Notes under the pieces: generated by a model
Database searches by the model: none
Told to the model about the DNA's origin: nothing
Seen by the model: the letters and a program-made list of their open reading frames with translations, nothing else
DNA from: a virus
Length of the DNA: 60,087 nt
IMG/VR virus record: IMGVR_UViG_3300045988_173323
Reading direction: 5' to 3' (one strand)
Position numbers and translations under genes: made by a program
In this document: piece by piece, positions 1 through 57,992 of the stretch
Numbering within the stretch: the stretch's first letter is position 1
How the letters are laid out: every line of letters begins with the position of its first letter

Positions 1-55
1 AACTTGTTACAATGGTATTATATCGCACCTTAGCTTAAAAGTCAAGCATTTTCGT

Positions 56-235
56 TTATTTTTTAAAATCTTTTAACTGCTGGTTTGTAGACAACTCTTT
101 AATTTTATATTTATGTAATCTGTTGTTTAAACAATAAATGCATGAACCATGGTTTCTGCACTGCATTGATATTGCTTTTGCTTTGCGGTATTCTTTTCTA
201 TGCTCTTTACCACTTTTAATTGCTTTGTCCATCAT
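56..235 (-). CDS. small Cys/His-rich protein (59 aa), absent from ORF track
   Basis: Manual translation of the minus strand gives MMDKAIKSGKEHRKEYRKAKAISMQCRNHGSCIYCLNNRLHKYKIKELSTNQQLKDFKK. An RBS (AGGTGG) lies 6 nt upstream. It sits directly downstream of the nucleotidase gene in the same operon. The C-x5-C-x2-C pattern suggests a small zinc-binding protein. Confidence 0.35.
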   Translation of the reverse strand: MMDKAIKSGKEHRKEYRKAKAISMQCRNHGSCIYCLNNRLHKYKIKELSTNQQLKDFKK

Positions 236-252
236 GTTTAACCACCTACTTT

Positions 253-726
253 CTATAAGAAATTTTTTAATACTTCCATGATATTGTTTACATCAAAACT
301 ATTTTTGCCCCACTCTTTTCTATTGCGTTCCTCGTCATCAAAAAGCCATCCCTTACAATCAACGACAGTACTTTTTGGTGTACCATAGTTTACAATTTTG
401 ATTTCATCCCATTCAATACTAGGCAAGTGTTTTTCAAGCCATGCAAGTTTTACACTTGTTACCGCCGTATTATAAGAAGCTGACCCGCTTTTACTTAACC
501 AGCTTACAATACCGATTCTATAGCCATTAGCTTGTAACTTGTGAAGCACTCTTGCGAAAGCTGAAAAATTGAAAAGCGGTTTTGCTACTTTGTATGGTGT
601 AGTATCTTCTTTTTCCAAATATGCTAACCAGTTTTCCACGCCGTAGAAATTAGCAAGTGTGCCGTCCATGTCAAAATAAATAGTTCCCTTTGTGTTCATC
701 ATTTCTTTAATTGTATTATTCATCAT
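253..726 (-). CDS. HAD-superfamily 5'(3')-deoxyribonucleotidase-like phosphatase
   Basis: The N-terminal FDMDGTLANF matches the DxDGT(L/V) HAD motif I of NT5C-type deoxyribonucleotidases. The size (157 aa) fits. The track start at 738 is a TTG; ATG-ATG at 724-726 with a GGGAAGGA RBS is more likely. Confidence 0.55.
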   Translation of the reverse strand: MMNNTIKEMMNTKGTIYFDMDGTLANFYGVENWLAYLEKEDTTPYKVAKPLFNFSAFARVLHKLQANGYRIGIVSWLSKSGSASYNTAVTSVKLAWLEKHLPSIEWDEIKIVNYGTPKSTVVDCKGWLFDDEERNRKEWGKNSFDVNNIMEVLKNFL

Positions 727-844
727 AATATCTACCAATCCTTCCCTTTTTGATTATCGCAAGTGCTTTGCGATTGACCGACCAATGATTATGTGAACCT
801 TGCTTTGTTTCTGTTTTTTAAGTTTAATGTCCTTCGACAAGTAT

Positions 845-873
845 ATATTACTACATCTTAGCGAAAAAGTCAA
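845..873 (-). promoter_or_regulatory. sigma70-like promoter (TTGACT-17-TAATAT) for the leftward nucleotidase operon
   Basis: Minus-strand reading: TTGACT, a 17-bp spacer, then TAATAT. It lies about 100 nt upstream of the ATG at 726. Confidence 0.4.
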
Positions 874-1170
874 ATTTATTTTTTATTGTGCAAAGTGATG
901 AAAATTTTACATAAAAATCATAGTATTTTTGTTAAAATGTACAAATGTAGAAAAATAATGCGGATTTAGGCAGATTTTTGTGCATTTTGCTATCTTAAAT
1001 ATCACATATTGTGTTTCTGCGTGTCAAAAAAGGTATGATTTTTTATTAAAATTTCGTCACTTTGCACAAGGTGTAGAAAATCTTAGCATTATTTTATTAA
1101 ATTTTGTACATTTTGTACACCATGTCAAAAAATGGGATTTTTTTAATTTATTTTTTGTGCAAATTGCCTA

Positions 1171-1200
1171 TTGACAAAAAGGTGCTAGATGTGGTATAAT
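1171..1200 (+). promoter_or_regulatory. near-consensus sigma70 promoter with extended -10 (TTGACA-17-TGgTATAAT), rightward
   Basis: TTGACA at 1171-1176 and TGGTATAAT at 1192-1200. No plus-strand CDS follows; the transcript would start about 1207 inside a GC hairpin. Confidence 0.55.
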
Positions 1201-1205
1201 AAAAT

Positions 1206-1227
1206 TTCGGGGTGCCCCGACCCCGAA
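1206..1227. other. GC-rich hairpin (TTCGGGG-N8-CCCCGAA) between two face-to-face promoters
   Basis: A 7-bp perfect stem with an 8-nt loop; locally >70% GC in a ~28% GC genome. It lies at +1 of the rightward promoter and about +12 to +33 of the leftward promoter. Confidence 0.5.
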
Positions 1228-1245
1228 CGGAATTCGTCTACTTCC

Positions 1246-1274
1246 ATTATAGCATACTCGAGCCACCTTGTCAA
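1246..1274 (-). promoter_or_regulatory. consensus sigma70 promoter (TTGACA-17-TATAAT), leftward, convergent with promoter 1171-1200
   Basis: Minus-strand reading: TTGACA (RC of 1269-1274), a 17-bp spacer, TATAAT (RC of 1246-1251). The -35 lies in the left arm of the 28-bp inverted repeat. Confidence 0.55.
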
Positions 1275-1339
1275 GAGAAAAAATGCACAAATTTTAGGAT
1301 AAAAATTTTGAAAAATTTGTGCATTTTTTCTCTTGACAA
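1268..1339. repeat. 28-bp perfect inverted repeat (TTGTCAAGAGAAAAAATGCACAAATTTT / reverse complement) separated by 16 bp
   Basis: Arms are at 1268-1295 and 1312-1339 and are exact reverse complements. Each arm carries a TTGACA -35 (of the divergent promoters) plus a TGCACAAA element. Confidence 0.9.
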
Positions 1340-1361
1340 AATGTCTCAACTATGCTATAAT
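1333..1361 (+). promoter_or_regulatory. consensus sigma70 promoter (TTGACA-17-TGcTATAAT), rightward, divergent from promoter 1246-1274
   Basis: TTGACA at 1333-1338 and TATAAT at 1356-1361 with TG at 1353-1354. The mirror arrangement matches the leftward promoter because of the inverted repeat. Confidence 0.55.
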
Positions 1362-1365
1362 GGAA

Positions 1366-1398
1366 GGCTCGGCTCGCATGGGCTGCTCGCGAGCCGGC
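1366..1398 (+). other. GC-rich structured leader (GGCTCGC...GCGAGCC; 10-bp palindrome GCTCGCGAGC) at +1 of the rightward promoter
   Basis: Seen directly in the sequence; about 75% GC over 33 nt. No ORF with an RBS follows. Confidence 0.4.
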
Positions 1399-1449
1399 TA
1401 TTATAACACATTTTCCGCGACTTGTCAACCCCTTTTAAAAAATTTTTTT

Positions 1450-1522
1450 ATTTTCGTCATTTTGCATAAAAATAAAATTCAGCATTTTGCACAAATTTTA
1501 TTTTCGTCATTTTGCATAAAAA
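1450..1522. repeat. two identical 23-bp direct repeats (ATTTTCGTCATTTTGCATAAAAA) exactly 50 bp apart
   Basis: Copies are at 1450-1472 and 1500-1522. A TTTTGCACA (DnaA-box-like) 9-mer lies between them at about 1486-1494. Confidence 0.85.
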
Positions 1523-1549
1523 AACAAAAGCCTAAATTATATAGGCTTT
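1514..1549 (-). terminator. rho-independent terminator ending the leftward early region
   Basis: A 7-bp stem AAAGCCT/AGGCTTT (1527-1549) is followed on the minus strand by a U-run (complement of A-rich 1516-1526). It lies 19 nt past the stop of CDS 1568-1774. Confidence 0.5.
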
Positions 1550-1567
1550 ATCATTACTCTTATTAAG

Positions 1568-1774
1568 TTATTTAGTATTACATTTACATTTTGCTTCTGT
1601 AATAATTTCTGTCTGATTAATTTCTGTATTGCTATTGTTATTAAAAAAATGGTCTGAGCCTTTTGCTAAAAAAACTATTATAGTTGCTAGAATCATTCCG
1701 ATTATAAGAAAACCAATTAGACCATTCAAATCTCTTCTAAATTCTTCATCTGTTGGGGCTTTTTCTTCTCTCAT
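1568..1774 (-). CDS. small membrane protein (68 aa, one central TM helix)
   Basis: ORF track entry; hydrophobic segment LIGFLIIGMILATIIVFLA. Confidence 0.5.
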   Translation of the reverse strand: MREEKAPTDEEFRRDLNGLIGFLIIGMILATIIVFLAKGSDHFFNNNSNTEINQTEIITEAKCKCNTK

Positions 1775-1820
1775 TTATTTTTTCCTTTTTTTAGAGTTGT
1801 GAGTTGTGAATTTCATGGAC

Positions 1821-2000
1821 TTAATTATTATTAAGTCCATGAAACTTTTTATTTTCTCGTTTCATTATTGTTTCATAAGCAATCTCTACTATTTCTTTTG
1901 AAATATTTTGATTTTCTGCTATTTTACAGAACATAATCACTGTATCATTTTCAAACCCTTTTACTTTAATTACATTATCCATCATCTCTGTTCTTGTCAT
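1821..2000 (-). CDS. small protein, paralog family A (59 aa from the MTRTEMMDNV start)
   Basis: The ORF track start at 2021 lies only about 5 nt from the predicted TSS. The ATG at 1998-2000 has an RBS (AAAGAGAGG) at correct spacing. It is paralogous to ORF 2160-2285. Confidence 0.5.
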   Translation of the reverse strand: MTRTEMMDNVIKVKGFENDTVIMFCKIAENQNISKEIVEIAYETIMKRENKKFHGLNNN

Positions 2001-2032
2001 TATTGCTTTCCTCTCTTTCATTTGATAATGTT

Positions 2033-2061
2033 ATTATACTATAAAGTCGGCTACTTGTCAA
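2033..2061 (-). promoter_or_regulatory. consensus sigma70 promoter (TTGACA-17-TATAAT), leftward, with conserved leader cassette
   Basis: Minus-strand reading: TTGACA (RC of 2056-2061), a 17-bp spacer, TATAAT (RC of 2033-2038). It is followed by the leader AACATTATCAAATGAAAGAGAGG, which is shared with the cassettes at 2921-2984 and 4366-4426. Confidence 0.55.
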
Positions 2062-2159
2062 CTACATTTTTTAAATGTTTAATTGCTTTTTCTCATTTTT
2101 ACTATCTTTTTCTTTTTTCTTTGTCGCATGAGTTTTTAAAACTCATGCGACTTTTACTA

Positions 2160-2285
2160 TTATTTTATTACTACTGCGTAAGCAAGTTCTACTGTTGTAT
2201 TTGAAACTTCACTTTCTGCTAATTTACAAAACCAGATTGTCAGTTCATCTTCAAAGCCTCTTGCTTTAATCACATTGTCCGTCAT
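2160..2285 (-). CDS. small protein, paralog family A (41 aa), absent from ORF track
   Basis: Manual translation gives MTDNVIKARGFEDELTIWFCKLAESEVSNTTVELAYAVVIK. It aligns with the core of the 1821-2000 product (MMDNVIKVKGFENDTVIMFCKIAENQNISKEIVEIAYETI). A TTGACA-17-TAATAT promoter lies upstream at about 2300-2330. Confidence 0.45.
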   Translation of the reverse strand: MTDNVIKARGFEDELTIWFCKLAESEVSNTTVELAYAVVIK

Positions 2286-2364
2286 TTCTTTTTTTACTGT
2301 TGTCTTTGACTGTTTTTATATTATCACAAAAGCTTGATTTTGTCAAGTTTTTGTGATATTTTTT

Positions 2365-2697
2365 TTACTTTTTTTGTTTAAAATTACTATGTAATTCAAT
2401 TACTTTACCGCAGTTGTCACAAGTCCAATAGTAAATTGTTCCGACATTTTTTATATAGTCTGCGTTTGCAAATCTCCATTTATTTCCGCACTCTACACAG
2501 TAGCCATTGTTCCAATTTACTTTATCGGATGATTGTTCAATTTTAATTAGCCATGTAAAAGTGCATCCTATTAAAAGAGCTAAGATAATGCCAATTACTG
2601 TTTTAATGATTCGATTTCCATTTTCATAAAAGATGTTTACCATAAATCCGCCAACGAATATTGTCATAAGAATCGTTACTAAAATTGTTCTAATCAT
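2365..2697 (-). CDS. membrane-anchored zinc-ribbon protein (110 aa)
   Basis: Two N-terminal hydrophobic helices, then C-x2-C ... C-x2-C (CVECGNKW...CDNCGKV). An RBS (GAAGGAA) lies upstream. Confidence 0.5.
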   Translation of the reverse strand: MIRTILVTILMTIFVGGFMVNIFYENGNRIIKTVIGIILALLIGCTFTWLIKIEQSSDKVNWNNGYCVECGNKWRFANADYIKNVGTIYYWTCDNCGKVIELHSNFKQKK

Positions 2698-2720
2698 TTT
2701 TTAATTCCTTCTTTCTTTAT

Positions 2721-2921
2721 TTATTTATTATTACTATCTCTCTTAACTATATTTATAATATCACATTTTTCGGTTTTTGTCAAGCCTTTTTCCTCTTTTA
2801 AAATTCTATTGATTTGGTTTTTAATATCCTTCAAATCTTCAAGACTGCAATAAACTTTATCACCCCAACCGCCTTTAATTGTATAAGGATAACTCTTATC
2901 ATCACTTTTTTCTACTGTCAT
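2721..2921 (-). CDS. hypothetical protein (66 aa from the MTVEKSDD start)
   Basis: The track start at 2984 lies inside the -35 of its own promoter. The ATG at 2919-2921 has a GAGAGAGG RBS and the conserved leader. Confidence 0.5.
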   Translation of the reverse strand: MTVEKSDDKSYPYTIKGGWGDKVYCSLEDLKDIKNQINRILKEEKGLTKTEKCDIINIVKRDSNNK

Positions 2922-2955
2922 TTTTATCAACCTCTCTCTTTCATTTGATAATGTT

Positions 2956-2984
2956 ATTATACTATAGGTCTTAACAAAAGTCAA
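2956..2984 (-). promoter_or_regulatory. consensus sigma70 promoter (TTGACT-17-TATAAT), leftward, with conserved leader cassette
   Basis: Minus-strand reading: TTGACT, a 17-bp spacer, TATAAT. The -35 is embedded in the imperfect palindrome AGGTCTTGAC-TTTT-GTTAAGACCT. Confidence 0.55.
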
Positions 2985-3002
2985 GACCTATTTTATTTTT
3001 TC

Positions 3003-3404
3003 TCAAATTTTTGTTATTCCTCTGTCTTTCAAATATTCACAAAAACTATCAGAGTCAAGCATTTTCGCAATGTCTTTCATTGAAACGTTCATTTTGTTAT
3101 ACACACAACGTACTTCAATAGGTTTAAATTTTTTTTCTGTAATAGCTGTTGATAAAGAATCTTCTACATTGCTTAATCGAACAACTCTTTTTTTAAAGAA
3201 ATTTTTTGAAATTTCAGCATTTATAAATAAACCTTTTTCAACTAAATTAATCAGTTCGTCAAAAGTGTTGATTGTAAAGTTCCTTGTCTTTGCTTCTGCT
3301 TCTTCTGGGGTAAGGTATCTTACGTGTTCCCAGATACTTGTATCAACAAAGTTTTTTCGACCCTCTATTCTGTACTTGAATCTATAATCATAAACTTCTT
3401 TCAT
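3003..3404 (-). CDS. hypothetical protein (133 aa from the MKEVYDYRF start)
   Basis: ORF track entry. The track start is a TTG; the ATG at 3402-3404 is preceded by AGAAAGAGG. Confidence 0.5.
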   Translation of the reverse strand: MKEVYDYRFKYRIEGRKNFVDTSIWEHVRYLTPEEAEAKTRNFTINTFDELINLVEKGLFINAEISKNFFKKRVVRLSNVEDSLSTAITEKKFKPIEVRCVYNKMNVSMKDIAKMLDSDSFCEYLKDRGITKI

Positions 3405-3437
3405 TTTTATCAACCTCTTTCTTTATTTTCTATATTT

Positions 3438-3466
3438 ATTATACAGTATCTATTGACTTTTGTCAA
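3438..3466 (-). promoter_or_regulatory. consensus sigma70 promoter (TTGACA-17-TATAAT), leftward
   Basis: Minus-strand reading: TTGACA (RC of 3461-3466), a 17-bp spacer, TATAAT (RC of 3438-3443). The flank has the same AAAATAGGTCTTGAC upstream element as the promoter at 2956-2984. Confidence 0.5.
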
Positions 3467-3481
3467 GACCTATTTTATTTT

Positions 3482-3742
3482 TTATTTTGGAAGGATAACC
3501 TCAGCTTCGACAGGTACTACTTTCTCAGATGCCATAAAAGCTTTCATATATCCCGTAGCAAGATTAACCGCAATGAATCTACCTTTTTGTCTTTCCAAGA
3601 AAAAACCGCTATTCCTATCAATAATCATGTACAACCCGATTTCATCAATACCACCTCTTTGACTAATACTGAAAAAAGTTTTTCCTATTGTCAAGTCATT
3701 GATGCAAATTTCTGTTGCTTTTTTATCATAGTTGATTTTCAT
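3482..3742 (-). CDS. hypothetical protein (86 aa)
   Basis: ORF track entry; an AGAGAGG RBS lies 8 nt upstream. Confidence 0.5.
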   Translation of the reverse strand: MKINYDKKATEICINDLTIGKTFFSISQRGGIDEIGLYMIIDRNSGFFLERQKGRFIAVNLATGYMKAFMASEKVVPVEAEVILPK

Positions 3743-3760
3743 TTTAATTACCTCTCTTTC

Positions 3761-3943
3761 TTATTTAATTTCTTTAAAGATACTTTCATCTGTGGCATTA
3801 CATAACTTATTATTTACGTTATACTTAGCATAAAGCCACTTTTTACAATCCCATTTTAGCGGACAATGATAACAAGTTGTAGTAAAAGCCGTGGTTTCCA
3901 TCGGAATTGCAAGAAATATCTTTTTAAGTTTTTTAGTTATCAT
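3761..3943 (-). CDS. small Cys-rich protein (60 aa; CYHCPLKWDCKKW)
   Basis: ORF track entry; an AAGGAGGAG RBS lies upstream. Confidence 0.45.
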   Translation of the reverse strand: MITKKLKKIFLAIPMETTAFTTTCYHCPLKWDCKKWLYAKYNVNNKLCNATDESIFKEIK

Positions 3944-3976
3944 ATTATTTTTTTCTCCTTCCTTTTAACTATCTTT

Positions 3977-4005
3977 ATAATACCATATTAAAATTATTTT
4001 GTCAA
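3977..4005 (-). promoter_or_regulatory. sigma70-like promoter (TTGACA-17-TATTAT), leftward
   Basis: Minus-strand reading: TTGACA (RC of 4000-4005), then a -10 with 5 of 6 matches. Confidence 0.35.
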
Positions 4006-4084
4006 TCCCCTTTTATAAAAAATTATAAAAAAGGAAGATTTTTTATCTTCCTTTTACTTTTGTTTTATTCTTGTTTTTTTATTT

Positions 4085-4231
4085 TTATCTTAATAATCTT
4101 AATAAATAGTTATTTTCATGCTCTTTCAAAAAAGCGTTAATTTCTTCTATTGTTTCAGCGTAAATCTCGCCTGTCTCAGTGTCTACAAGCATCAATTTTT
4201 TACTTCCTAAAAATAATCCTAAATCTAACAT
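4085..4231 (-). CDS. small protein (48 aa), absent from ORF track
   Basis: Manual translation gives MLDLGLFLGSKKLMLVDTETGEIYAETIEEINAFLKEHENNYLLRLLR; an RBS (AATGGAGGG) lies upstream. Confidence 0.35.
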   Translation of the reverse strand: MLDLGLFLGSKKLMLVDTETGEIYAETIEEINAFLKEHENNYLLRLLR

Positions 4232-4245
4232 ATTTAAGCCCTCCA

Positions 4246-4365
4246 TTAAGAAATTTTTACCAGATAACCGTTTGTATTTTTTTCTACTGAAAAAATGTAT
4301 TGATTATCTTTTAAGTATTTTTTTACAGTTTCAAATGCTTTTCGAGTTGTCAGTAACATTGTCAT
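4246..4365 (-). CDS. small protein (39 aa), absent from ORF track
   Basis: Manual translation gives MTMLLTTRKAFETVKKYLKDNQYIFSVEKNTNGYLVKIS. It is preceded by the conserved leader cassette (AAATGAAAGAGAGG). Confidence 0.35.
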   Translation of the reverse strand: MTMLLTTRKAFETVKKYLKDNQYIFSVEKNTNGYLVKIS

Positions 4366-4397
4366 ATCCCTTTACCTCTCTTTCATTTGATAATACT

Positions 4398-4426
4398 ATG
4401 ATACTATATTTCTTTGCTTTTGTCAA
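4398..4426 (-). promoter_or_regulatory. sigma70 promoter (TTGACA-17-TATCAT), leftward, with conserved leader cassette
   Basis: Third copy of the module ...TAT(A/C)ATAGTATTATCAAATGAAAGAGAGG. Confidence 0.5.
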
Positions 4427-4543
4427 GCATTTTAGGAAAATTTTCTAAAGATTTTTTTATGCGGATTTCCGCTGGAAAAACCTGAACTTAAGGAGATTAT
4501 AGGCGAACCGACTCCAGAACTATCAAGTTCGGGAGTCCCTTTT

Positions 4544-4720
4544 TTATTTAAGGAATGATTCTAAAGCCTTGTAGCATAAATCAGCGTTTTCTTTATCTTT
4601 TATGCTAGTACCTTTAGAAAAGTCATTCATAGCGGCTGTCAGTAGTTCTGGTACTGAAATAAATTCAAATTCAAATACCAACTGTAAAGCCGCCAATTCA
4701 TTAAGATTGACTTTTTTCAT
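4544..4720 (-). CDS. small protein (58 aa), absent from ORF track
   Basis: Manual translation gives MKKVNLNELAALQLVFEFEFISVPELLTAAMNDFSKGTSIKDKENADLCYKALESFLK; an RBS (GGAGATAAG) lies upstream. Confidence 0.4.
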   Translation of the reverse strand: MKKVNLNELAALQLVFEFEFISVPELLTAAMNDFSKGTSIKDKENADLCYKALESFLK

Positions 4721-4769
4721 CGGTTCTTTCTTATCTCCTTTTTAAATATTTTATTTTCTTTACATTATT

Positions 4770-4798
4770 ATTATATCAAATTTTTTAATAAAAATCAA
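4770..4798 (-). promoter_or_regulatory. sigma70-like promoter (TTGATT-17-TATAAT), leftward
   Basis: Seen on the minus strand upstream of ORF 4544-4720. Confidence 0.4.
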
Positions 4799-4814
4799 AA
4801 AAGATACTTTATCT

Positions 4815-4854
4815 AAACAAGCAAAGAAAAGGGCTGAACTTATTCCGCCCTTTT
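4815..4854 (-). terminator. putative rho-independent terminator after the lipoprotein-like gene
   Basis: A 7-bp stem AAAGGGC/GCCCTTT with a 12-nt loop, followed by a U-rich tract on the minus strand. Confidence 0.35.
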
Positions 4855-4866
4855 CCCGCTTCCCCG

Positions 4867-5133
4867 CTATCCTATTATCTCTGCATTTGTAATAATATCA
4901 TCTGTCACGTTGTCAGTCCCTAAAGAATCCATGTATAATTTAACTCTATCTTTTGCTTTAAAACCGTCTCCATAGAAACTCCAAACATGTCCGTAGCTAT
5001 CCATAACCACCACCTCATCATTAAAAGAGCTAATCACTTTAGCTTCTCTTGTATACTTAGTAAAGCTACCAAAACCGCAAATACTACTTAAAACTGCACT
5101 TACTGCTAATCCTAAAATCACCTTTTTCATCAT
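4867..5133 (-). CDS. secreted or lipoprotein-like small protein (88 aa from the MMKKVILG start)
   Basis: An N-terminal signal-peptide-like segment ends ...AVLSSICGF, a possible lipobox Cys. The track start is a TTG; ATG-ATG is preceded by AGAAAGAGG. Confidence 0.5.
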   Translation of the reverse strand: MMKKVILGLAVSAVLSSICGFGSFTKYTREAKVISSFNDEVVVMDSYGHVWSFYGDGFKAKDRVKLYMDSLGTDNVTDDIITNAEIIG

Positions 5134-5135
5134 AT

Positions 5136-5414
5136 CTAACTCCAACCTCTTTCTTTCTTAATCTTTTCGTATCTTTCTTTTGCTTCTTTTTCAATCTTCT
5201 TTTTGTCATACATTCTAATTTTCATTCTAGTATATCCGTCTCTTTTTAAACACCAACGTTCTGTTTTACGTTGTACTACTATTTTATCAATAGCTCTTTG
5301 CTGTACCTCTTGCTTATGAGTGTTGTAATATTTGATACTCTCAATTTCTAATAAAGTACTTATTGGTCTGTACTTATTGGTTACACTAAACAAAGTGCAT
5401 TGAATTGTTATCAT
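5136..5414 (-). CDS. basic (K/R-rich) hypothetical protein (92 aa), possibly nucleic-acid binding
   Basis: ORF track entry. An AGAGAGGTGA RBS lies upstream. It is the first gene after the promoter at 5443-5471. Confidence 0.5.
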   Translation of the reverse strand: MITIQCTLFSVTNKYRPISTLLEIESIKYYNTHKQEVQQRAIDKIVVQRKTERWCLKRDGYTRMKIRMYDKKKIEKEAKERYEKIKKERGWS

Positions 5415-5442
5415 CTTCTTATCACCTCTCTTTTCAAGTATT

Positions 5443-5471
5443 ATTATACTACCTTATTATACCATTGTCAA
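5443..5471 (-). promoter_or_regulatory. consensus sigma70 promoter (TTGACA-17-TATAAT), leftward, first promoter of the early region
   Basis: Minus-strand reading: TTGACA (RC of 5466-5471), a 17-bp spacer, TATAAT (RC of 5443-5448). Confidence 0.5.
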
Positions 5472-5489
5472 GCGTTTATTTATAGTATT

Positions 5490-5880
5490 TTTATTCGTCT
5501 TAATGCATATTTATTTATGTATATTTATTCACATTGCTAGTTAGCTTTACATATTTTATATTTATATCCTTTTATAAATTTTATAAATTAAATTATAAAA
5601 TAAAATATAATATATCAGTTATTGCATTGTTTTACTTAATATTTATTTAAGCATATCTTTCTTATTATACTATTATGTTATTCTATTATAACTATTATAA
5701 GACAAGAGTCTTACGTTGAATACACTATTATTATTATTGTAACACTTCTATAAAAGTAATTACATAATATAAAATATTATTATACTTATACTTTGTATGT
5801 ATTGTTATAGTATAATATTATTATACTGTTATTATTATTATTATTATTATCTTTCCTTTATCTTAAGCTTAATCTCTCAT
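5490..5880. repeat. about 390 bp of extreme AT-rich low-complexity non-coding DNA with an (ATT)7 microsatellite (5831-5850)
   Basis: Seen directly in the sequence. No ORF is present. A small palindrome TAAGAC-AAGA-GTCTTA lies at about 5698-5713. Confidence 0.6.
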
Positions 5881-5899
5881 TATAACACCTTTAGCTCAT

Positions 5900-6170
5900 T
5901 CTGTCAATAGACATTTTACACAATTTTTTCTTTTGATTTTCGTGCAGATTGACCATTGACATTTCTTGTCTATTGACATTTTGTACAAAAATCAAATTAT
6001 ATTTTTGTATACTTTTACCATTGACAGGACTTGTCAATAGACATAATGCACAAAATTTTCCTTGCATTTTTGTGCAATTTTACCTATTGACAAACTCATT
6101 TTAGGAAAATATCTTTGTGCATTTTTTACAAAAATTTAGCCAAAAATTTGTGCATTTTGTCTATTGACAG
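5900..6170. promoter_or_regulatory. array of at least 5 copies of the near-palindromic 12-mer TGTC(TATT/AATA)GACA flanked by TTGTGCA / TGCACAAA elements, in both orientations
   Basis: Copies are at 5903-5914, 5967-5978, 6032-6043, 6084-6092 (half site) and 6158-6169. ACCATTGACA appears at 5952 and 6017. The same motif family occurs in the 980-1340 control region. Confidence 0.6.
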
Positions 6171-6177
6171 GCTTCTC

Positions 6178-6223
6178 GGAGCGTTGCGAAAGTATACGCT
6201 CCGATGGTAGATGGCAAGCTACC
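6178..6223. other. pair of GC-rich hairpins (GGAGCG-N13-CGCTCC; GGTAG-N8-CTACC) immediately after the last repeat copy
   Basis: Seen directly in the sequence; locally about 55% GC versus a ~28% background. Confidence 0.45.
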
Positions 6224-6507
6224 AATAGCCAATAAAATTCTAATCTTCTTGCTTTATTTTAATTATTTAAAGAATTTATTTTATTAGTTTAACTCTTTCT
6301 CCTCTTTATTTAAAATAATGTGTTCAAAATCCTTCTGAACAAAAAACATATCCTCTTTGGAAAATGATTTGAAAAATTATTTGTTAGGCGGTGTTTTGTT
6401 GCTTCTTACTCAAAAGAAAAGACCAATCTACAGACCATACCCAAACATAATACCCGGGCTATATTAAAGGATTAAAATTTTTTACTTTTATAAAAAGATA
6501 GTGTTCT

Positions 6508-6645
6508 CCACAATTCTCTCTCCAAAAAAATTTTTAAATCTAAAAATTGAAGAAAATGAAGAAGAAAAAATTGAAATAATTCTCCTTCCAAAAATTTTAG
6601 AATCTAAGAATCTAAAATAAAAACTTTAAGGATTCTAAATATTAA
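6508..6645. repeat. iteron-like direct and inverted repeats (CCAAAAA(A)TTTT(T)A-AATCTAA; AGAATCTA x2; GGATTCT)
   Basis: Units are at about 6512-6545 and 6583-6612; AGAATCTAAGAATCTAAAA at 6599-6617; the inverted partner GGATTCTAAA at 6631-6640. Confidence 0.45.
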
Positions 6646-6727
6646 AAAATTTTCTTCTTCTTCTTCTTTAAAAAATGCGTGAGTGTCAAGTTAATCTCCG
6701 AAATACGTTTAAAAGCTTAGTAATCAT

Positions 6728-6952
6728 CTAAAACATCGCGTTTGCCTGTTCATAATATTTTAATTCTTGAATCCAAGCGATTGGAATTACCATTTCCGCT
6801 TTAGCGTATCTTTCTATAGCATCCATGATTTCATGTCTCCTAGTATTGATTATTTCTAATCTAAAAGTTTCACGCGGAACCAATCCTGCAACTGCAACTG
6901 CAACTGTTTTCTTTGCTTTCCCTGTTTCGTTATTCATAGTCATATTACTCAT
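6728..6952 (-). CDS. hypothetical protein (74 aa)
   Basis: ORF track entry. A strong RBS (AGGAGGAAAA) lies upstream. It is translationally coupled downstream of the DUF2493-like gene. Confidence 0.5.
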   Translation of the reverse strand: MSNMTMNNETGKAKKTVAVAVAGLVPRETFRLEIINTRRHEIMDAIERYAKAEMVIPIAWIQELKYYEQANAMF

Positions 6953-6964
6953 ATTATTTTCCTC

Positions 6965-7309
6965 CTATTTTACTATTTTAATTACTTTACCATGTTTTCC
7001 GCTCATTTTCATTTTCATAATAATCTTTCTAATTATTGCGTCTTTTCCATCATAAAAAAGTATAGCAAAATCAATATTATCTACCATTTTCTGAATTAAT
7101 TTATCTATATTGCGATCAAATATATATTCAATAGGAGCACCATTATTTTCTGCCCATATTTTTCCAATAGACTCCGAGAGCTTCTTCTCCGTATTCCCGC
7201 AAACAACAGTAAACAAGTAACACTGCGTTTCACAGATAAAATCTTCCATAGCTGCGGAGACTAGGCGATTATCCGCGAAACCGCGACTTCCAAGAATACT
7301 AATTCTCAT
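6965..7309 (-). CDS. DUF2493-like (SLOG/LOG-type Rossmann) phage protein
   Basis: The pattern MRISILGSRGFAD...TVVCG...W...P...LFYDGKD...GK.VKIV recalls the DUF2493 signature (MRVxVxGSRxF.D...VV.GGA...W...P...FPGG..GT...G..V). The call is by recall only. Confidence 0.45.
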   Translation of the reverse strand: MRISILGSRGFADNRLVSAAMEDFICETQCYLFTVVCGNTEKKLSESIGKIWAENNGAPIEYIFDRNIDKLIQKMVDNIDFAILFYDGKDAIIRKIIMKMKMSGKHGKVIKIVK

Positions 7310-7390
7310 CTCTTTTTCCTCTTGTTTTATTTATAAAATAATTATAACAAAAATTTTTTAAAAAATCCAATTAAAGTGCTTTAATCAAAT

Positions 7391-7419
7391 TTGACAAAAA
7401 AATTTTTTTGTGGTATAAT
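7391..7419 (+). promoter_or_regulatory. near-consensus sigma70 promoter with extended -10 (TTGACA-17-TGgTATAAT) driving the rightward structural operon
   Basis: TTGACA at 7391-7396 and TGGTATAAT at 7411-7419. The RBS AAAGGAGAAATT lies before the ATG at 7447. The region is divergent from gene 6965-7309. Confidence 0.6.
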
Positions 7420-7446
7420 ATAATTGTAAATTAGAAAGGAGAAATT

Positions 7447-8604
7447 ATGACACCAATAATAATAGAAGATGAAGCTTTTGAGGAGAATATTTTAGAAGAA
7501 GAAAAAACAACAGAAAAACAAATCAAAGAAGAAAATATACAAACTACTATTAAATTAGATTATTCTTTAGAGACTCCTGAAGAGCGGAATGAATTAGTTA
7601 AAAAAATTATAAATAATACTCCTTCTGAGCAATTAACACCTAGATATTTAGAAATATTGTCAGATTACATTATTTTTGCTATGGATAAACAAGAGCGGAA
7701 ACAAAAGCAAATATTAACTGATAATCACATGGTCACAGTTAACAAAAGAGAAACTTCTTTTGAAGGATTAGTTGGTCGCTTAGAGAATGGCGAAGATGGC
7801 ATTTATAATATGATTGCTAATGATAAGAATATTATCTTTACACCTAAATTTCAAATAACTCAACAAGATATTGCGGAAATCCCCGAGTTAAAACAACTTG
7901 TAGACGCGATTGCGGAAGTTGAAAAAGCTGAGAAAAAAGCAGTTGGTAAAAAGAAATTTTTATTAAAAAAGCAACTTATTGCTATGAGACAAGATCAATA
8001 TGTAATTAGAAGTGCATATAAGCCGCCAATTTATTGTATGAACGCAATTAAAAGTTTTAGCAAAATTGATTTTGATGAAAATGTTTCTATTAGCGGAGAT
8101 GATGAAATTGAAGATAATAGCTTAGTTTCTTTTTTTAATCCTAAGCACGTATCTGCGTTATTATGTAACTATTCCCGCCTAAAAGAAGATGCATGGGGAA
8201 AATTCTATAGTGATTCATACTTTTTAATGGAAGATTTAGATACATTAATAGAAAAGACTTTAAGAGACAGCTATCCAATGTATTATGACCTCTTGATTTA
8301 TAAAATAGATGGAAAACAAAATCTTGAAATTCAAAGCCTATTGAATCAAAAGCATAATGTAAAACATTCAGTGGAATATATATCATCTTTGTGGCGGAAT
8401 AAGATACCTAAGCTATTGTCAGAGCAAGCTCAGGAAGACTACTTAATTTGGTATTATACGACTCAGAAGAAGGGAAAATGGAAAAAATGTTCCCGCTGTG
8501 GGGAAATCAAATTAGCTCATAATAAATTTTTTTCAAAGAATAAGACAAGCAAAGATCATTTTTACAGTATATGTAAATGTTGTCGAAATAAGAAAAATAA
8601 GTAA
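7447..8604 (+). CDS. hypothetical acidic protein with a C-terminal C-x2-C...C-x2-C zinc ribbon (385 aa)
   Basis: ORF track entry. The C-terminus reads CSRCGEIKLAHNKFF...ICKCCRNKKNK. It is the first gene of the late operon. Confidence 0.55.
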   Translation: MTPIIIEDEAFEENILEEEKTTEKQIKEENIQTTIKLDYSLETPEERNELVKKIINNTPSEQLTPRYLEILSDYIIFAMDKQERKQKQILTDNHMVTVNKRETSFEGLVGRLENGEDGIYNMIANDKNIIFTPKFQITQQDIAEIPELKQLVDAIAEVEKAEKKAVGKKKFLLKKQLIAMRQDQYVIRSAYKPPIYCMNAIKSFSKIDFDENVSISGDDEIEDNSLVSFFNPKHVSALLCNYSRLKEDAWGKFYSDSYFLMEDLDTLIEKTLRDSYPMYYDLLIYKIDGKQNLEIQSLLNQKHNVKHSVEYISSLWRNKIPKLLSEQAQEDYLIWYYTTQKKGKWKKCSRCGEIKLAHNKFFSKNKTSKDHFYSICKCCRNKKNK

Positions 8605-22822: not shown

Positions 22823-22824
22823 CT

Positions 22825-22852
22825 TGACAAAAGAAAAATTTTATAGTATAAT
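22825..22852 (+). promoter_or_regulatory. internal sigma70-like promoter (TTGACA-16-TATAAT) ahead of the chaperone and tape measure genes
   Basis: TTGACA at 22825-22830 and TATAAT at 22847-22852. Confidence 0.4.
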
Positions 22853-50679: not shown

Positions 50680-50708
50680 ATTATAACATATTATTCTAAT
50701 TCTGTCAA
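50680..50708 (-). promoter_or_regulatory. consensus sigma70 promoter (TTGACA-17-TATAAT) for ruvC
   Basis: Minus-strand reading: TTGACA (RC of 50703-50708), a 17-bp spacer, TATAAT (RC of 50680-50685), then the RBS AAAGGAGAA. Confidence 0.5.
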
Positions 50709-54802: not shown

Positions 54803-55393
54803 TTATTGTCCATGTATAAAATCTGCAATAGGTTCAAAAGAGTCAAACATACTAGGAGCATAATCAGATTCATTATAAAAAGTTATATATTCAAAATTAA
54901 TGTCTGAAAAATCTCTTTCGTCAGCAAGAAATCTTCGACAAATTTCTCTGCAATCTGGGTTATGTTCTCTTCTTAAAGCTCTTTTTAATCTTTCTTTTCC
55001 TGGTGCTTCTATTAAAACTGGTAGTACCTCTATTCTTTCATCTTTCAATAATTGCCTAATCCCTGAGATACTAAAAACACCAATATTTATTTTATCTTTA
55101 TCTAACTCTTGGATAGAAGTGCCATATAGCCATTTTTTAAAATAAACCGCATCTATTATATCTTTATTGCGAACCCGTCTTTCAAAATCATCACGATATA
55201 GAAAATAATAATCTATGCCATCTCTTTCGTATGCTCTTGGTGATCTAGTAGTACAACTAATAATTTCTTTTATTTCTGAATGATTGTAACACATTCGTTT
55301 TTTTATAGTATCTTTTCCTGCACCGCTCTTTCCGAACAGTGCAAGAACTTTATATTTTGACATTTTATTCTCCTTCCATACCATATCTAACAT
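54803..55393 (-). CDS. gmk: guanylate kinase-family nucleoside monophosphate kinase
   Basis: The P-loop GKSGAGKDT, the TTRSPRAYERDGIDYYF guanylate-kinase signature (TTRxPRxGExDGxDYxF), and the YGTS motif. Confidence 0.75.
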   Translation of the reverse strand: MLDMVWKENKMSKYKVLALFGKSGAGKDTIKKRMCYNHSEIKEIISCTTRSPRAYERDGIDYYFLYRDDFERRVRNKDIIDAVYFKKWLYGTSIQELDKDKINIGVFSISGIRQLLKDERIEVLPVLIEAPGKERLKRALRREHNPDCREICRRFLADERDFSDINFEYITFYNESDYAPSMFDSFEPIADFIHGQ

Positions 55394-56776
55394 GCTCTAG
55401 TTTCATATCTGAACCATTGACGTCAATAATCTTGTAGAGCTGATGGGTAGGGGTATGTTTATACGATTTAGTCTGAAATGTATCTCCACGCCTAAACCCA
55501 GTACACATTACTTTTGTTCCTCTTTGAAACCAGCCTTTTTCCATAACTTTTTTAGTTCCATCTTCTTGCTTTTCAGAAATTTGTCTCCCAAACATAGCAA
55601 AGTAATCTTTTGTAAATTTTACATTAACAACTCCAGAAGTTGTTAATAATGATATTGAAGAACGAGCATCATTTTTACTGATTACAGTGCCAATGATTTT
55701 ATAAGTCTTATAAATAGGGATTTCTTTTCCATTTCTTTTGAAAAAATAATCTACAACAGGCTCTTCGGGTAATTTAGAAAAATCTGAAATTCCATACTTT
55801 AAAGTATCAATATTTATTAATTCATGTGGATGATAATAAAAACATAAGCTTTCCATTTCCCACGCGGAAATATTTCCTTTAGCATATTTATTCCAAGAGT
55901 CAAGAAATAAAGCCTCATTAAATTCTTTTAATACTGTCTGTTGATTCTCTTTAAGCCAATCTCTAGCTCTATCCATGCCTTTTTGATACTTTTTATCCCA
56001 TTTGTTTTGTAAAATACAAACGCATCCGTTTATCACTTCAAGGTCTTCCATATCGTATCTTTGATTGTAGAATTTTTCACAAGCATCATCAAAGACATAA
56101 TATTTTCCAACTTTTTTCTCAGTTTTTAGATACTTATTAAAGAAAAATAATCTTTTCATACTATCTAAAGAAGGTGGAATTAAGTCTTTTTGAATTAAAC
56201 CATTAAAGTTTTGTAGCGTTAATTTCTTTTTTGGTTCACTAACAACAGACAGATAATATATCATTACAAGCACTCTTGGTTCAACATTTAATTCTTTTGC
56301 CCATTCTAATTCCAGTTTATCAAAAGCTCCGCTCTTTATTAAGGAAATCATTGCAGATTTATTTAAAGGACATCTTATCATAAAGTCTTTAATGCTTTTA
56401 TATGGTCTACCAGAAAAAATCTGCTCAATAATTGGTGCACCTACATTACTCAATGCTTTCATTCCAAAAAGAATTTCGTTGTTTTCAACATCTGGCTTAA
56501 AGCTATAGTCAGATTTATTTATATCAACTAAAGAAATTTTTATTCCTCTTGATAAAATATCTCCAATAGCCTTAGCTATTTTACTATAATCCGTAGATTT
56601 TTCTTTCTTTTTACTTTCTTCTGTTTCTTCTTCATTTTCAATATTATCTTCTTCTAAGGCTCCACTATTTACAATTAAACACGCGGTATTCCAATAGATA
56701 GGATTCCATCTTGTGGCTATGTATATAGTTTGAAATCCTATGAAAGAGTAAGCCAGGGCATGTATGCATAATTTAA
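55365..56776 (-). CDS. dnaE: DNA polymerase III alpha (DnaE-type) C-terminal exon (HhH + OB-fold region), downstream of the intron
   Basis: The translation upstream of the track start continues in frame as HALAYSFIGFQTIYIATRWNPIYWNTA...DINKSDYSF...EILFGM-KALSNVGAPIIEQI, matching the DnaE ...SHAxAYSxIGxQ... fingers and HhH region. The 5' limit at 56776 is the estimated 3' splice site (+/- a few nt). My reading of the displayed sequence near 56460 differed by 1 nt from the ORF track, and I trust the track. Confidence 0.7.
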
Positions 56777-56777
56777 A

Positions 56778-57992
56778 ATTACTGACTATTTTTTACAGAC
56801 GTTGTAGTGAGATTTTGGCTTTTCTCTTGTCTGCACACTATTTCCCAAAACGTATCAATAGTTTCAGTACTCCCCGTCTAACCAGGGATAGTCGATACAA
56901 CATTTTTCTTTTAATAGATTTATTTATTATCTCTAAGAGGGTATTTATATTTTTCTTTTTTATGAGAACGTCCTGCGTTAATATTTTTAATTGTTGCATA
57001 GCTTTTATTCCATTTTTTTGCGATATCTTTTAAAGATAAATCTGTTTCTAAAATATCTTTTATAATACCTTGAATCCAGATTTCATTTTTAGCTTTATTA
57101 CCACCTTTATCACAAAGAGGGTAGTTATCCTTATCACTATAAAAATATTTTCCTGTATTTATCATAGATAAAAATCCAGCTGATTTAATTCCAAAATCTT
57201 CTTGAATTGTTTTATATTTTTCTCCGCTTTTAATTCTATCTTTTATTTCTCTAATTTCTTTTTGAGAAAAGCGGCTTTTAGAATTTTTCTTTAAAGGATA
57301 ATCAAACTCTTCATTAAAATAATTTGTTCCAGTATTTATATTAACTAAAAACGTTCTTTTTAACTTAGGAAAATAAATTTTTTCAATATCATCATATTCT
57401 TCATCATTCATTAGACGATTTTGGATATCAATAATTTCTTCTTTTTTAAAGAGTTTAGATCGGTTTAATTTTTCTTCATACGTTAAAGGTTTTCTTTTAT
57501 ATCCTTGTCCGCCTAAAGTAATATTATATCCATTTTCATCTTTTAAAGAATGATAATATTGAATAAAATAAATTTCTCTTTCGTCAATATATTCTTGAGA
57601 TTCTCCATCAGCAATCTCTTCAAGAATATCAAAATTAAAATTATCCCAACCATATTTTCTTATGGCTGCGTGAAATGGCAAATTATAGCCAGAAGTTTTT
57701 TCATTAAAAGACTCACTTTTATGTCCATTTTTTCTTTTTTGAACATTATTAGTTTGTCCGATATAAATTTTACCATTTGTTTTATTTGTAAATTTATAAA
57801 TATAGTACATAATATTCTCCTTATACATTGTTTTACTATTCTCATGTATAACTGAAAAATACTATACCTCTATTAAAGAAATTTGTCACGAGATTTAACC
57901 CTCGTTAGCAATTAAAACCATATTTGCCAAATATGTAAATGTTTTAATTACCCCACTGATAAGTGGTTAAGTGTGTAAGCACCATTCACACA
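56778..57992 (-). mobile_element. group I intron (about 1.2 kb) in dnaE carrying a GIY-YIG homing endonuclease ORF
   Basis: dnaE reading frames lie on both sides. The insertion falls inside the conserved GY(S/G)F-NxS-HAxAY polymerase motif. In-frame stops follow exon 1 at 57986. A free-standing HEG with its own RBS lies inside. Flanking blocks of about 180 and 140 nt are compatible with a group I core. The boundaries are approximate. Confidence 0.7.
56920..57810 (-). CDS. GIY-YIG homing endonuclease (intron-encoded), 296 aa from MYYIYKFTN
   Basis: The classic N-terminal YYIYKFTNKTNGKIYIGQT...R...H...N...E GIY-YIG module is present. The C-terminal two-thirds looks like a DNA-binding extension. 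An AAGGAGA RBS precedes the second ATG; the track start at 57828 is 6 codons upstream. Confidence 0.8.
   Translation of the reverse strand: MYYIYKFTNKTNGKIYIGQTNNVQKRKNGHKSESFNEKTSGYNLPFHAAIRKYGWDNFNFDILEEIADGESQEYIDEREIYFIQYYHSLKDENGYNITLGGQGYKRKPLTYEEKLNRSKLFKKEEIIDIQNRLMNDEEYDDIEKIYFPKLKRTFLVNINTGTNYFNEEFDYPLKKNSKSRFSQKEIREIKDRIKSGEKYKTIQEDFGIKSAGFLSMINTGKYFYSDKDNYPLCDKGGNKAKNEIWIQGIIKDILETDLSLKDIAKKWNKSYATIKNINAGRSHKKEKYKYPLRDNK

Follow-up and report, generated by a model that had tools for sequence, protein, structure and literature searches.

What does a dense array of short inverted repeats do in the non-coding DNA among the early genes of a large phage? The array in question lies at 5902-6169 of a 60,087-nucleotide stretch of viral DNA (IMG/VR record IMGVR_UViG_3300045988_173323; GC content, ~30%), hereafter the window. 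Together with two GC hairpins and two ~65-bp repeats, it occupies a 1.3-kb non-coding stretch (5415-6727) inside a leftward early region. Gene regulation in large siphophages of gut Clostridia and related Firmicutes is almost unstudied. An initial annotation of the locus had described copies of a near-palindromic 12-mer and offered three candidate roles, namely, a multi-operator region, a replication origin, and a packaging-related site. Here, we report that the repeats form a real, non-random, and conserved cis-regulatory array, which is most likely a transcription control region rather than an origin or a packaging site.

Exact copies of the 12-mer, as TGTCTATTGACA or its complement, stand at 5902(-), 5967(+), 6032(-), and 6158(+) and are absent from the rest of the 60 kb. 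With at most one mismatch, six matches were found (0.45 expected), a number reached in none of 100 shuffles. The repeats reported initially are thus real, although the count of at least five copies holds only if degenerate versions are included: four copies are exact, and the others are ACCATTGACA (twice, at 5952 and 6017, as reported) and ACCTATTGACA (once). The heptamer TTGTGCA, or a one-mismatch variant of it, lies beside each 12-mer copy, in agreement with the fixed-side flank noted earlier. The composite TTGTGCA-N9-TTGACA, allowing up to two mismatches, gave 11 matches against 1.7 expected, 9 of them within 1155-1338 and 5902-6169. The 12-mer is only part of the true repeat unit, a half-unit of 22 bp with the form TTGTRCA-N9-TTGACA (the heptamer is called the box below), in which the 12-mer comprises the hexamer TTGACA and the last six bases (TGTCTA) of the N9 spacer.

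Two half-units placed back to back make a 60-bp imperfect palindrome, TGTCAA-N9-TRYACAA-N16-TTGTRYA-N9-TTGACA. The array is therefore dyad symmetric, as proposed, but the dyad is this palindrome and not the 12-mer. Four palindromes follow one another in tandem (starts at 5902, 5967, 6032, and ~6110; spacings of 65, 65, and 78 bp), giving eight boxes and eight TTGACA hexamers in 270 bp, with the hexamers of neighboring units 5 bp apart. All four were recovered in an everted-pair scan and in alignment A1, which holds the four units, their reverse complements, and the divergent core of a second cluster (cluster A, below); array units and cluster A core form one family. Unit 1 (5902-5961), an imperfect palindrome, reads TGTCAATAGACA-ttt-TACACAA-N16-TCGTGCA-N9-TTGACA. 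Unit 2 (5967-6026) carries the 12-mer flipped (TGTCTATTGACA) and boxes in the arrangement TGTACAA-N16-TTGTATA-N9-TTGACA; units 1 and 2 are also members of direct-repeat family D1 (65-bp spacing). Unit 3 (6032-6092), the best preserved, reads TGTCAATAGACA-taa-TGCACAA-N16-TTGTGCA-N10-TTGACA and has no mismatch in the everted-pair scan. Unit 4 (6110-6169), which forms inverted repeat I1 with unit 3, has a degenerate left arm (TTTACAA) and a right arm, TTGTGCA-N9-TTGACA (6148-6169), that includes the fourth exact 12-mer.

A second cluster of the family, also noted in the initial annotation, lies at 886-1494, ~4.7 kb leftward of the array. The two clusters, ~0.9 kb in all, contain 11 of the 19 TTGTGCA heptamers, a concentration that speaks against a composition effect with equal density in coding DNA. 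Solitary TTGTGCA boxes stand at 886(+), 978(+), 1063(-), 1488(-), and 6115(+). No open reading frame (ORF), tRNA, or Rfam family accounts for the array region. The two ORFs called over it (5891-6067, minus strand; 5949-6104, plus strand) are probably spurious because they are made of the repeats themselves. Rfam and tRNA scans of 1-8000 returned no tRNA, no family at gathering score, and nothing in 5893-6235; the only Rfam matches were sub-threshold and miRNA-like, to a 126-bp cluster A palindrome (1240-1366).

The key to the half-unit is its TTGACA, which had been considered probably not to be a -35 box on the grounds that no -10 follows at 17 bp. That view does not hold. The copy at 5902-5913 belongs to an extended -10 promoter on the minus strand, formed by the outer-left arm of the array (5879-5923): box TTGTGTA at 5923-5917, -35 TTGACA at 5907-5902, and TGtTATAAT with the -10 at 5884-5879. 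This TTGACA-17-TATAAT promoter with TG extension (5907-5879, hereafter 5907(-)) matches the sigma-A consensus at 12/12 positions, has a predicted leftward start near 5872, and is kept at 7774(-) in the closest relative, L001. Cluster A half-units have TATAAT at 17 to 18 bp three times. Overall, 4 of the 9 clustered composites possess a perfect TATAAT at 17 to 18 bp with a TG extension, and 12/12 extended -10 sigma-70/sigma-A promoters also stand at 1171(+), 1274(-), 1333(+), and 1428(-). Perfect TTGACA-N16-18-TATAAT sites number 11 in the window against 0.07 expected, and 9 of these lie within 1-7420.

Inside the array, the next unit begins 5 bp past each -35, so there is no room for a -10 on the inner arms, and only the outermost arms can be complete promoters. 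Consistently, the copies at 5956(+), 5973(+), 6021(+), 6037(-), and 6164(+) have no -10 with A2/T6 at 16 to 18 bp. A weak rightward promoter is possible on the right arm of unit 3 (6087-6115, plus strand; TTGACA-17-TATCTT, 10/12), as a consensus match only.

Cluster A shows what the same parts look like with their -10 elements in place. A face-to-face pair (1155-1290) consists of box-N9-TTGACA-18-TATAAT at 1155-1200(+) and box-N9-TTGACA-17-TATAAT at 1290-1246(-). Overlapping it is a back-to-back core (1264-1343; rows clusterA_div of alignment A1), the array palindrome with a 26-bp center (10 bp longer), both arms of which reach TGnTATAAT at 17 bp to make the divergent promoters 1274(-) and 1333(+); these arms have a 27-bp identical inverted repeat in common. 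A second face-to-face pair (1317-1428) is formed by 1333(+) and 1428(-). The pair 1171(+)/1274(-) encloses a GC hairpin at 1206-1227 and the pair 1333(+)/1428(-) one at 1367-1398, with no ORF in either; the same face-to-face architecture was seen in L001, L012, and L014. As a separate observation, transcription from 1333(+) would yield a ~470-nt antisense RNA over the leftward gene 1568-1774 (68 aa, hydrophobic), predicted to end at the plus-strand terminator 1811-1844, a layout reminiscent of type I toxin-antitoxin systems.

For comparison, 18 related loci were recovered through the phage sigma factor encoded in the window (7447-8604), and further loci (all designated L001, L002, and so on) were recovered through a 92-aa early protein (5136-5414). 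Their perfect promoters fall into two classes. Class A (77 sites, 67 of them leftward) is followed by an A-rich leader, a ribosome-binding site, and ATG, by which its members are recognizable as ordinary early gene promoters. Class B (22 sites) is followed by a GC-rich hairpin beginning TTTCGG and by no ORF, and its members often stand in face-to-face pairs 87 to 104 bp apart; unpaired class B promoters in relatives are always rightward, antisense to early genes. On the minus strand, the class B hairpin has the form of an intrinsic terminator when taken with the sequence complementary to the plus-strand -10 and discriminator, and hairpin 1206-1227 has its T-run on that strand.

Box spacings were counted in 11 non-redundant related loci. 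The spacer between box and TTGACA was 9 to 10 bp in 24 cases, 19 to 20 bp in 6, 30 bp in 3, and 40 bp in 1. Everted box pairs were separated by N15-16 (20 cases), N25-27 (11 cases), or N33-35 (3 cases), and inverted pairs by N3 (9 cases). Such quantization by one helical turn is a signature of face-of-helix contacts with promoter-bound polymerase. With N9 and N16, the center of the everted pair falls ~60 bp upstream of the predicted start. A scan of IMG/VR for AATTTGTGCA-N9-TTGACA found at least 120 stretches, with 142 instances among the matches listed. Of these listed instances, 85 (60%) have a -10 matching at least 5/6 positions at 16 to 18 bp, 35 of the 85 with a hairpin as well, and 31 have a hairpin and no -10. 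By these -10 counts, the half-unit is mostly the upstream part of a real promoter.

TTGTGCA boxes are kept in lineages whose sigma factors are 47 to 97% identical and are absent or replaced in L008, L009, and L012. Across the lineages that keep them, boxes and hairpin occupy the syntenic site, with 1 to 4 copies of the unit; the four-unit array itself is kept in L001, L002, and L007, with both box-restoring and box-degrading changes. In L021, the most divergent lineage having the 92-aa gene, a single TGCACAA-N16-TTGTGCA-N19-TTGACA-17-TACAAT promoter heads the operon of that gene, and further box-N10-TTGACA promoters precede early genes. Other motifs stand at box distance from the -35 of hairpin promoters in L008 (ATGTAAA-NN-GATCA; 1270-1320 and 4070-4120) and L012 (TTTGCA-N9; 3280-3305 and 4010-4040). 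The pattern in these two loci suggests box turnover, as would be expected if a binding factor co-evolves.

The paired GC hairpins described at the array end are present and adjacent, at 6176-6204 and 6205-6224; folded together as DNA (6176-6224) they reach -15.8 kcal/mol (z = -4.7). Hairpin 1 has the stem TCGGAGCG/CGCTCCGA (6176-6183 and 6197-6204) and a 13-nt loop. The second (6205-6224; TGGTAG-8 nt-CTACCA) is lost in L001 and is probably not functional. Hairpin 1 is part of a further element, class C, which has no -10 (6148-6204, plus strand; aaaaaTTTGTGCA-N9-TTGACA-N6-GC hairpin). In a systematic scan, aaaaaTTTGTGCA-N9-TTGACA-N4-9-hairpin (GC stem of 7 to 9 bp, loop of 11 to 13 nt) was found in almost every lineage: the window and L001, L002, and L007; L004 and L005 (two copies); L014 to L016; L017, where a face-to-face pair surrounds one common hairpin; L018; and L023 to L026. 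Relatives keep it at the syntenic position, rightward of the 92-aa gene. Stems vary by lineage (TCGGAGCG, CGGCGCG, GGCTCGC, ACGGCCCGC, GTCGGCGTG, ACGGCGCGT, and others). A hairpin accompanies 8 of 30 box-TTGACA sites against a background of 0.3% (P of about 4e-14). Class C hairpins, like the two at 6176-6224, have no T-run on either strand and are therefore not intrinsic terminators. Folding energies compared between strands, as a guide to RNA versus DNA function, had no consistent bias. The -35-plus-hairpin element is widely conserved and fits no standard category.

Of the three roles first offered for the array, the evidence agrees best with a multi-operator region belonging to the early region. 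In the form that we favor, and to which we give roughly an even chance, the array is a multi-site early promoter/operator region used by a putative box factor and host RNA polymerase. Its building block would come from host sigma-A promoters of a phage-specific family, of which it is the upstream half (TTGTRCA box, 9 bp, TTGACA), and each 60-bp palindrome would put its center ~60 bp upstream of each of two divergent starts. The 5907(-) promoter is predicted to fire across an AT-rich leader with no ORF (5480-5878, minus strand) into the early operon starting at 5414, and the outer-right arm (6164), lacking a -10, would face the conserved GC hairpin. A putative box-binding protein, of phage or host origin and dimeric or of higher order, might bind the everted pairs of TTGTRCA along one helix face and touch RNA polymerase at the adjacent -35. 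Eight boxes and eight -35s could in this way form a switch-like platform, cooperative in action, through which early transcription from the flanking promoters is set in level or timing. Both the binding of a protein to the box and the sign of its effect (activation or repression) we infer from sequence; our guess is timing or shut-off rather than activation, because the promoters are already consensus.

Several points weigh against this account. An activator seems unnecessary at promoters that already match the consensus, and a site centered at -60 is unusual for a simple repressor. A plain promoter reading leaves unexplained the 6 of 8 array -35 hexamers that are unable to form promoters, and it does not account for the conserved -10-less class adjoining a hairpin. 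The adjoining DNA is the most easily melted in the window, which also fits an origin. The small early proteins, the 92-aa product included, have no Pfam or PHROG function, and no binder was identified; the 92-aa product is the best candidate on phyletic grounds, yet it has no known DNA-binding fold. That protein co-occurs with boxes in 10 loci and is missing from 4 loci without box clusters. It is absent, however, from the box-rich L014, even by hidden Markov model search, and its candidacy as the box binder is therefore not supported.

Two other readings were considered. The class C element and the ORF-less face-to-face promoters could together represent a new non-coding docking device, at which host RNA polymerase and/or a box-binding protein would be parked beside an extrudable hairpin with no gene transcribed; the four-unit array would be its amplified form. 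The complex might insulate early operons from each other or act as a roadblock between them, anchor incoming DNA or make it pause (a Firmicute-phage analogue of the T5 injection stop), or provide a primer or loading site for replication. We regard this as improbable, with a small chance of being right. An unlikely explanation, too, is a replication origin activated by transcription, in which the box array would be the initiator-binding part, 5907(-) would fire into an unwinding element or R-loop/primer zone, and the hairpin would be a primosome or structural site. Transcription-linked origins include T4 ori(uvsY) and ori(34), the primary origins of T7, and, in lactococcal phage c2, an origin that depends on an early, untranslated transcript. 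The segment 5551-5850, adjoining the array downstream of its consensus promoter, has the lowest GC content in 60 kb (13.3%) and the least stable duplex, contains ATT/ATA repeat runs, and could serve as an AT-rich unwinding element; the leader holds the two least stable 100-bp stretches of the window. The phased sites in both orientations suit an initiator, the array is within ~1.3 kb of the point (~7400) where gene blocks and GC skew diverge, and even Enterococcus phage VRE9_2 has a large non-coding region with lineage-specific palindromes at this position. However, the long AT-rich stretch is lineage specific, common to L001 and absent in L023 and L025. The skew switches where gene orientation does, near 7400 and away from the array, and is thus accounted for by transcription strand bias. 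None of the flanking ORFs is annotated for replication, genes for an initiator, helicase, or primase are not among the neighbors, and elsewhere the half-unit forms the upstream part of many consensus promoters. DnaA boxes (TTWTNCACA) are not enriched (12 in 60 kb against 8.4 expected; one in the array), and the box itself was rejected as a DnaA box, since TTGTGCA fits TGTGNAWAA at just 5 to 7 of 9 positions.

The array might instead owe its form to the handling of DNA ends or to recombination. The T5 left terminal repeat (Davison, bioRxiv 10.1101/866236) carries leftward pre-early genes, including a 5' deoxyribonucleotidase (dmp), large untranslated regions rich in palindromes and in repeats both direct and inverted, blocks of related repeats separated by a few kilobases, and, between well conserved repeats, ORFs with little conservation; pairs of DnaA boxes were proposed as key. 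The window has a similar layout, with clusters at 886-1494 and 5902-6169 (a third in L001) and a variable block between them, a HAD-type 5' deoxyribonucleotidase-like gene at 253-738 in the early region, and terminase genes 2.4 to 3.6 kb to the right of the array. A cis-acting DNA-handling site near a genome terminus or terminal-repeat boundary (a T5-like injection stop), or a terminase recognition array, is nevertheless very unlikely in our view: the DnaA-box pairs are missing, none of the scanned early ORFs falls in a PHROG family of described function and hence none is annotated as T5 A1/A2, L004, L014, and L017 each have two copies of the hairpin element, where a cos or pac site would be unique, and most instances of the composite are ordinary promoters. 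The terminal repeat annotation of Brevibacillus phage Sundance was considered as a guide to termini and set aside, its genome organization being too different. Alternatively, the repeats could be an evolutionary by-product, either promoter/terminator cassettes acting as recombination hot spots or selfish palindromic repeats, in which case the four units would be tandem duplications of promoter cores with function in the outer promoter only. The block 1496-4026 is indeed hyperplastic, its small early genes being replaced by different ones in L001, L002, and L007, with flanks of 92 to 93% (left) and 87 to 89% (right) DNA identity. Its left breakpoint adjoins the TTGTGCA box at 1488-1494 and its right one a bidirectional terminator at 4029-4055. 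Unit copy number varies from 1 to 4 at the syntenic site, and the 27-bp identity of the 1274(-) and 1333(+) arms suggests recent conversion. The quantized spacings, and a -35-to-hairpin distance that stays fixed though stem sequences differ, nonetheless indicate selection on geometry and not mere copying; four units persist in L001, L002, and L007, box-restoring changes included, and the promoter faces the hairpin rather than following it. We accordingly hold a by-product to be doubtful, with only a small chance of being correct, and return to the multi-site promoter/operator region as the preferred reading.

The surroundings of the array are as follows. Beyond the leader, a second consensus promoter (5471-5443, minus strand) precedes the conserved 92-aa gene (5414-5136, minus strand), with which the leftward early operon opens. 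To the right, 6235-6727 is conserved non-coding DNA that contains a block CCCGGG...TATATTAAAGGATTAAAATTTTTT (near 6452-6490) and a tandem pair of ~65-bp repeats (6512-6577 and 6578-6641; core CTCTCCAAAAA); L001, L004, L010, L017, L018, L023, and L025 have related motifs in the corresponding position. The VRE9_2 locus (L020) has a syntenic 1.5-kb non-coding region (6490-8025) with different palindromes, comprising three Rex/CRP-like TTGTGAA-N4-TTCACAA sites, five AATAACAAGTGTTATTT, and two TGTAAGCGCTTACA.

From ~7310 to the start of the window the genes are small and point leftward; late genes point rightward from 7447. The window also encodes terminase, portal, anaerobic ribonucleotide reductase, and a presumed tape measure of 2,843 aa; relatives with long tape-measure ORFs have been described (PMC10607447). 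Replication genes, including a polymerase module, lie at 50 to 60 kb, where the DNA polymerase is in two pieces (57986-60070 and 55365-56462) with a homing endonuclease gene (56920-57828) between them. Two perfect TTGACA-17-TATAAT promoters stand outside the early region: one (22824-22852) precedes gene 22890 within the structural block, and the other (50680-50708) starts the leftward block at 50.7 kb. Protein matches place the window among large Firmicute siphophages of ~135 to 140 kb, such as phAss-1, Enterococcus phages EF1/VRE9, and Brevibacillus phage Sundance. These closest named relatives are too distant, and annotated phages gave no useful DNA match, whether near or remote. Neither promoters nor origins are analyzed in the phAss-1 paper, and literature searches for the TTGTGCA heptamer returned irrelevant matches only.

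What emerges is a promoter family marked by a conserved upstream box and by spacings phased with the helix, and coding early promoters can be told from non-coding ones. The cis-elements can be used for finding the regulator, annotating early regions of metagenomic phages, and building reporter and engineering tools. If the non-promoter reading is right, it would mean a new phage use of host polymerase or DNA structure to organize infection.

Set against known systems, the array is of a familiar kind, a phage early promoter/operator module; what such modules leave unexplained are the -35-plus-hairpin element and the ORF-less face-to-face promoters. The promoter-early stem-loop (PeSL) cassettes of T4-type phages (PMC4122927, PMC2839356) are likewise composites of promoter and stem-loop, repeated among small variable early ORFs in a hyperplastic region, and are plausible recombination points; cluster A and the relatives have such promoter-hairpin composites, with variable gene content. 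They differ in phage group and host, in the upstream box carried by the promoter, and in orientation, since the promoters here face the hairpin (convergent) or stand back to back and the PeSL promoter follows its terminator. The tandem four-unit array and the -10-less class are further differences from PeSLs. Like T5, the window comes from a large siphophage whose early region has non-coding stretches on the kilobase scale, with nested repeats and related blocks kilobases apart, but it has no DnaA-box pairs, and its repeats are recognizably promoter halves.

The candidate operators of Rex and CRP/FNR were rejected for the window, as its boxes are everted TTGTRCA with N16 and match neither TTGTGAA-N4-TTCACAA nor TGTGA-N6-TCACA. 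The inverted form in relatives, N3, equals TGTGC-N5-GCACA, and the Enterococcus relative alone has true Rex-like sites. The geometry is nonetheless like that of class I activators, for which CRP sites at -61.5, -72, -82, and -93 are known: the site is near -60 and shifts by helical turns (box-to-(-35) distances of 9, 19, 30, and 40 bp). Unlike class I CRP promoters, those of the window are already full consensus. Coliphage 186 (P2/186-type) has face-to-face promoters, pR and pL, that both drive genes and form the lysis/lysogeny switch. Cluster A resembles it in having strong convergent promoters with predicted starts only tens of base pairs apart, so that transcriptional interference is expected, and differs in having a GC hairpin between the pair and no ORF either there or beyond the rightward promoter. 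In phi29, the central control region holds promoters A2c, A2b, and A3 and four sites for protein p4 (CTTTTT-N15-AAAATG), which contacts RNA polymerase at the neighboring promoter and can activate or trap it. No p4 homologue or other binder was identified here, and the box sequence is unrelated. Like phi29, a lytic phage, the window comes from a Firmicute phage with divergent host-type promoters in a short non-coding region, and, like the p4 sites, its inverted repeats lie about two helical turns apart (TRYACAA-N16-TTGTRYA). The array departs from phi29 in its tandem units with -35s lacking -10 partners, its several clusters, and its coupling to GC hairpins.

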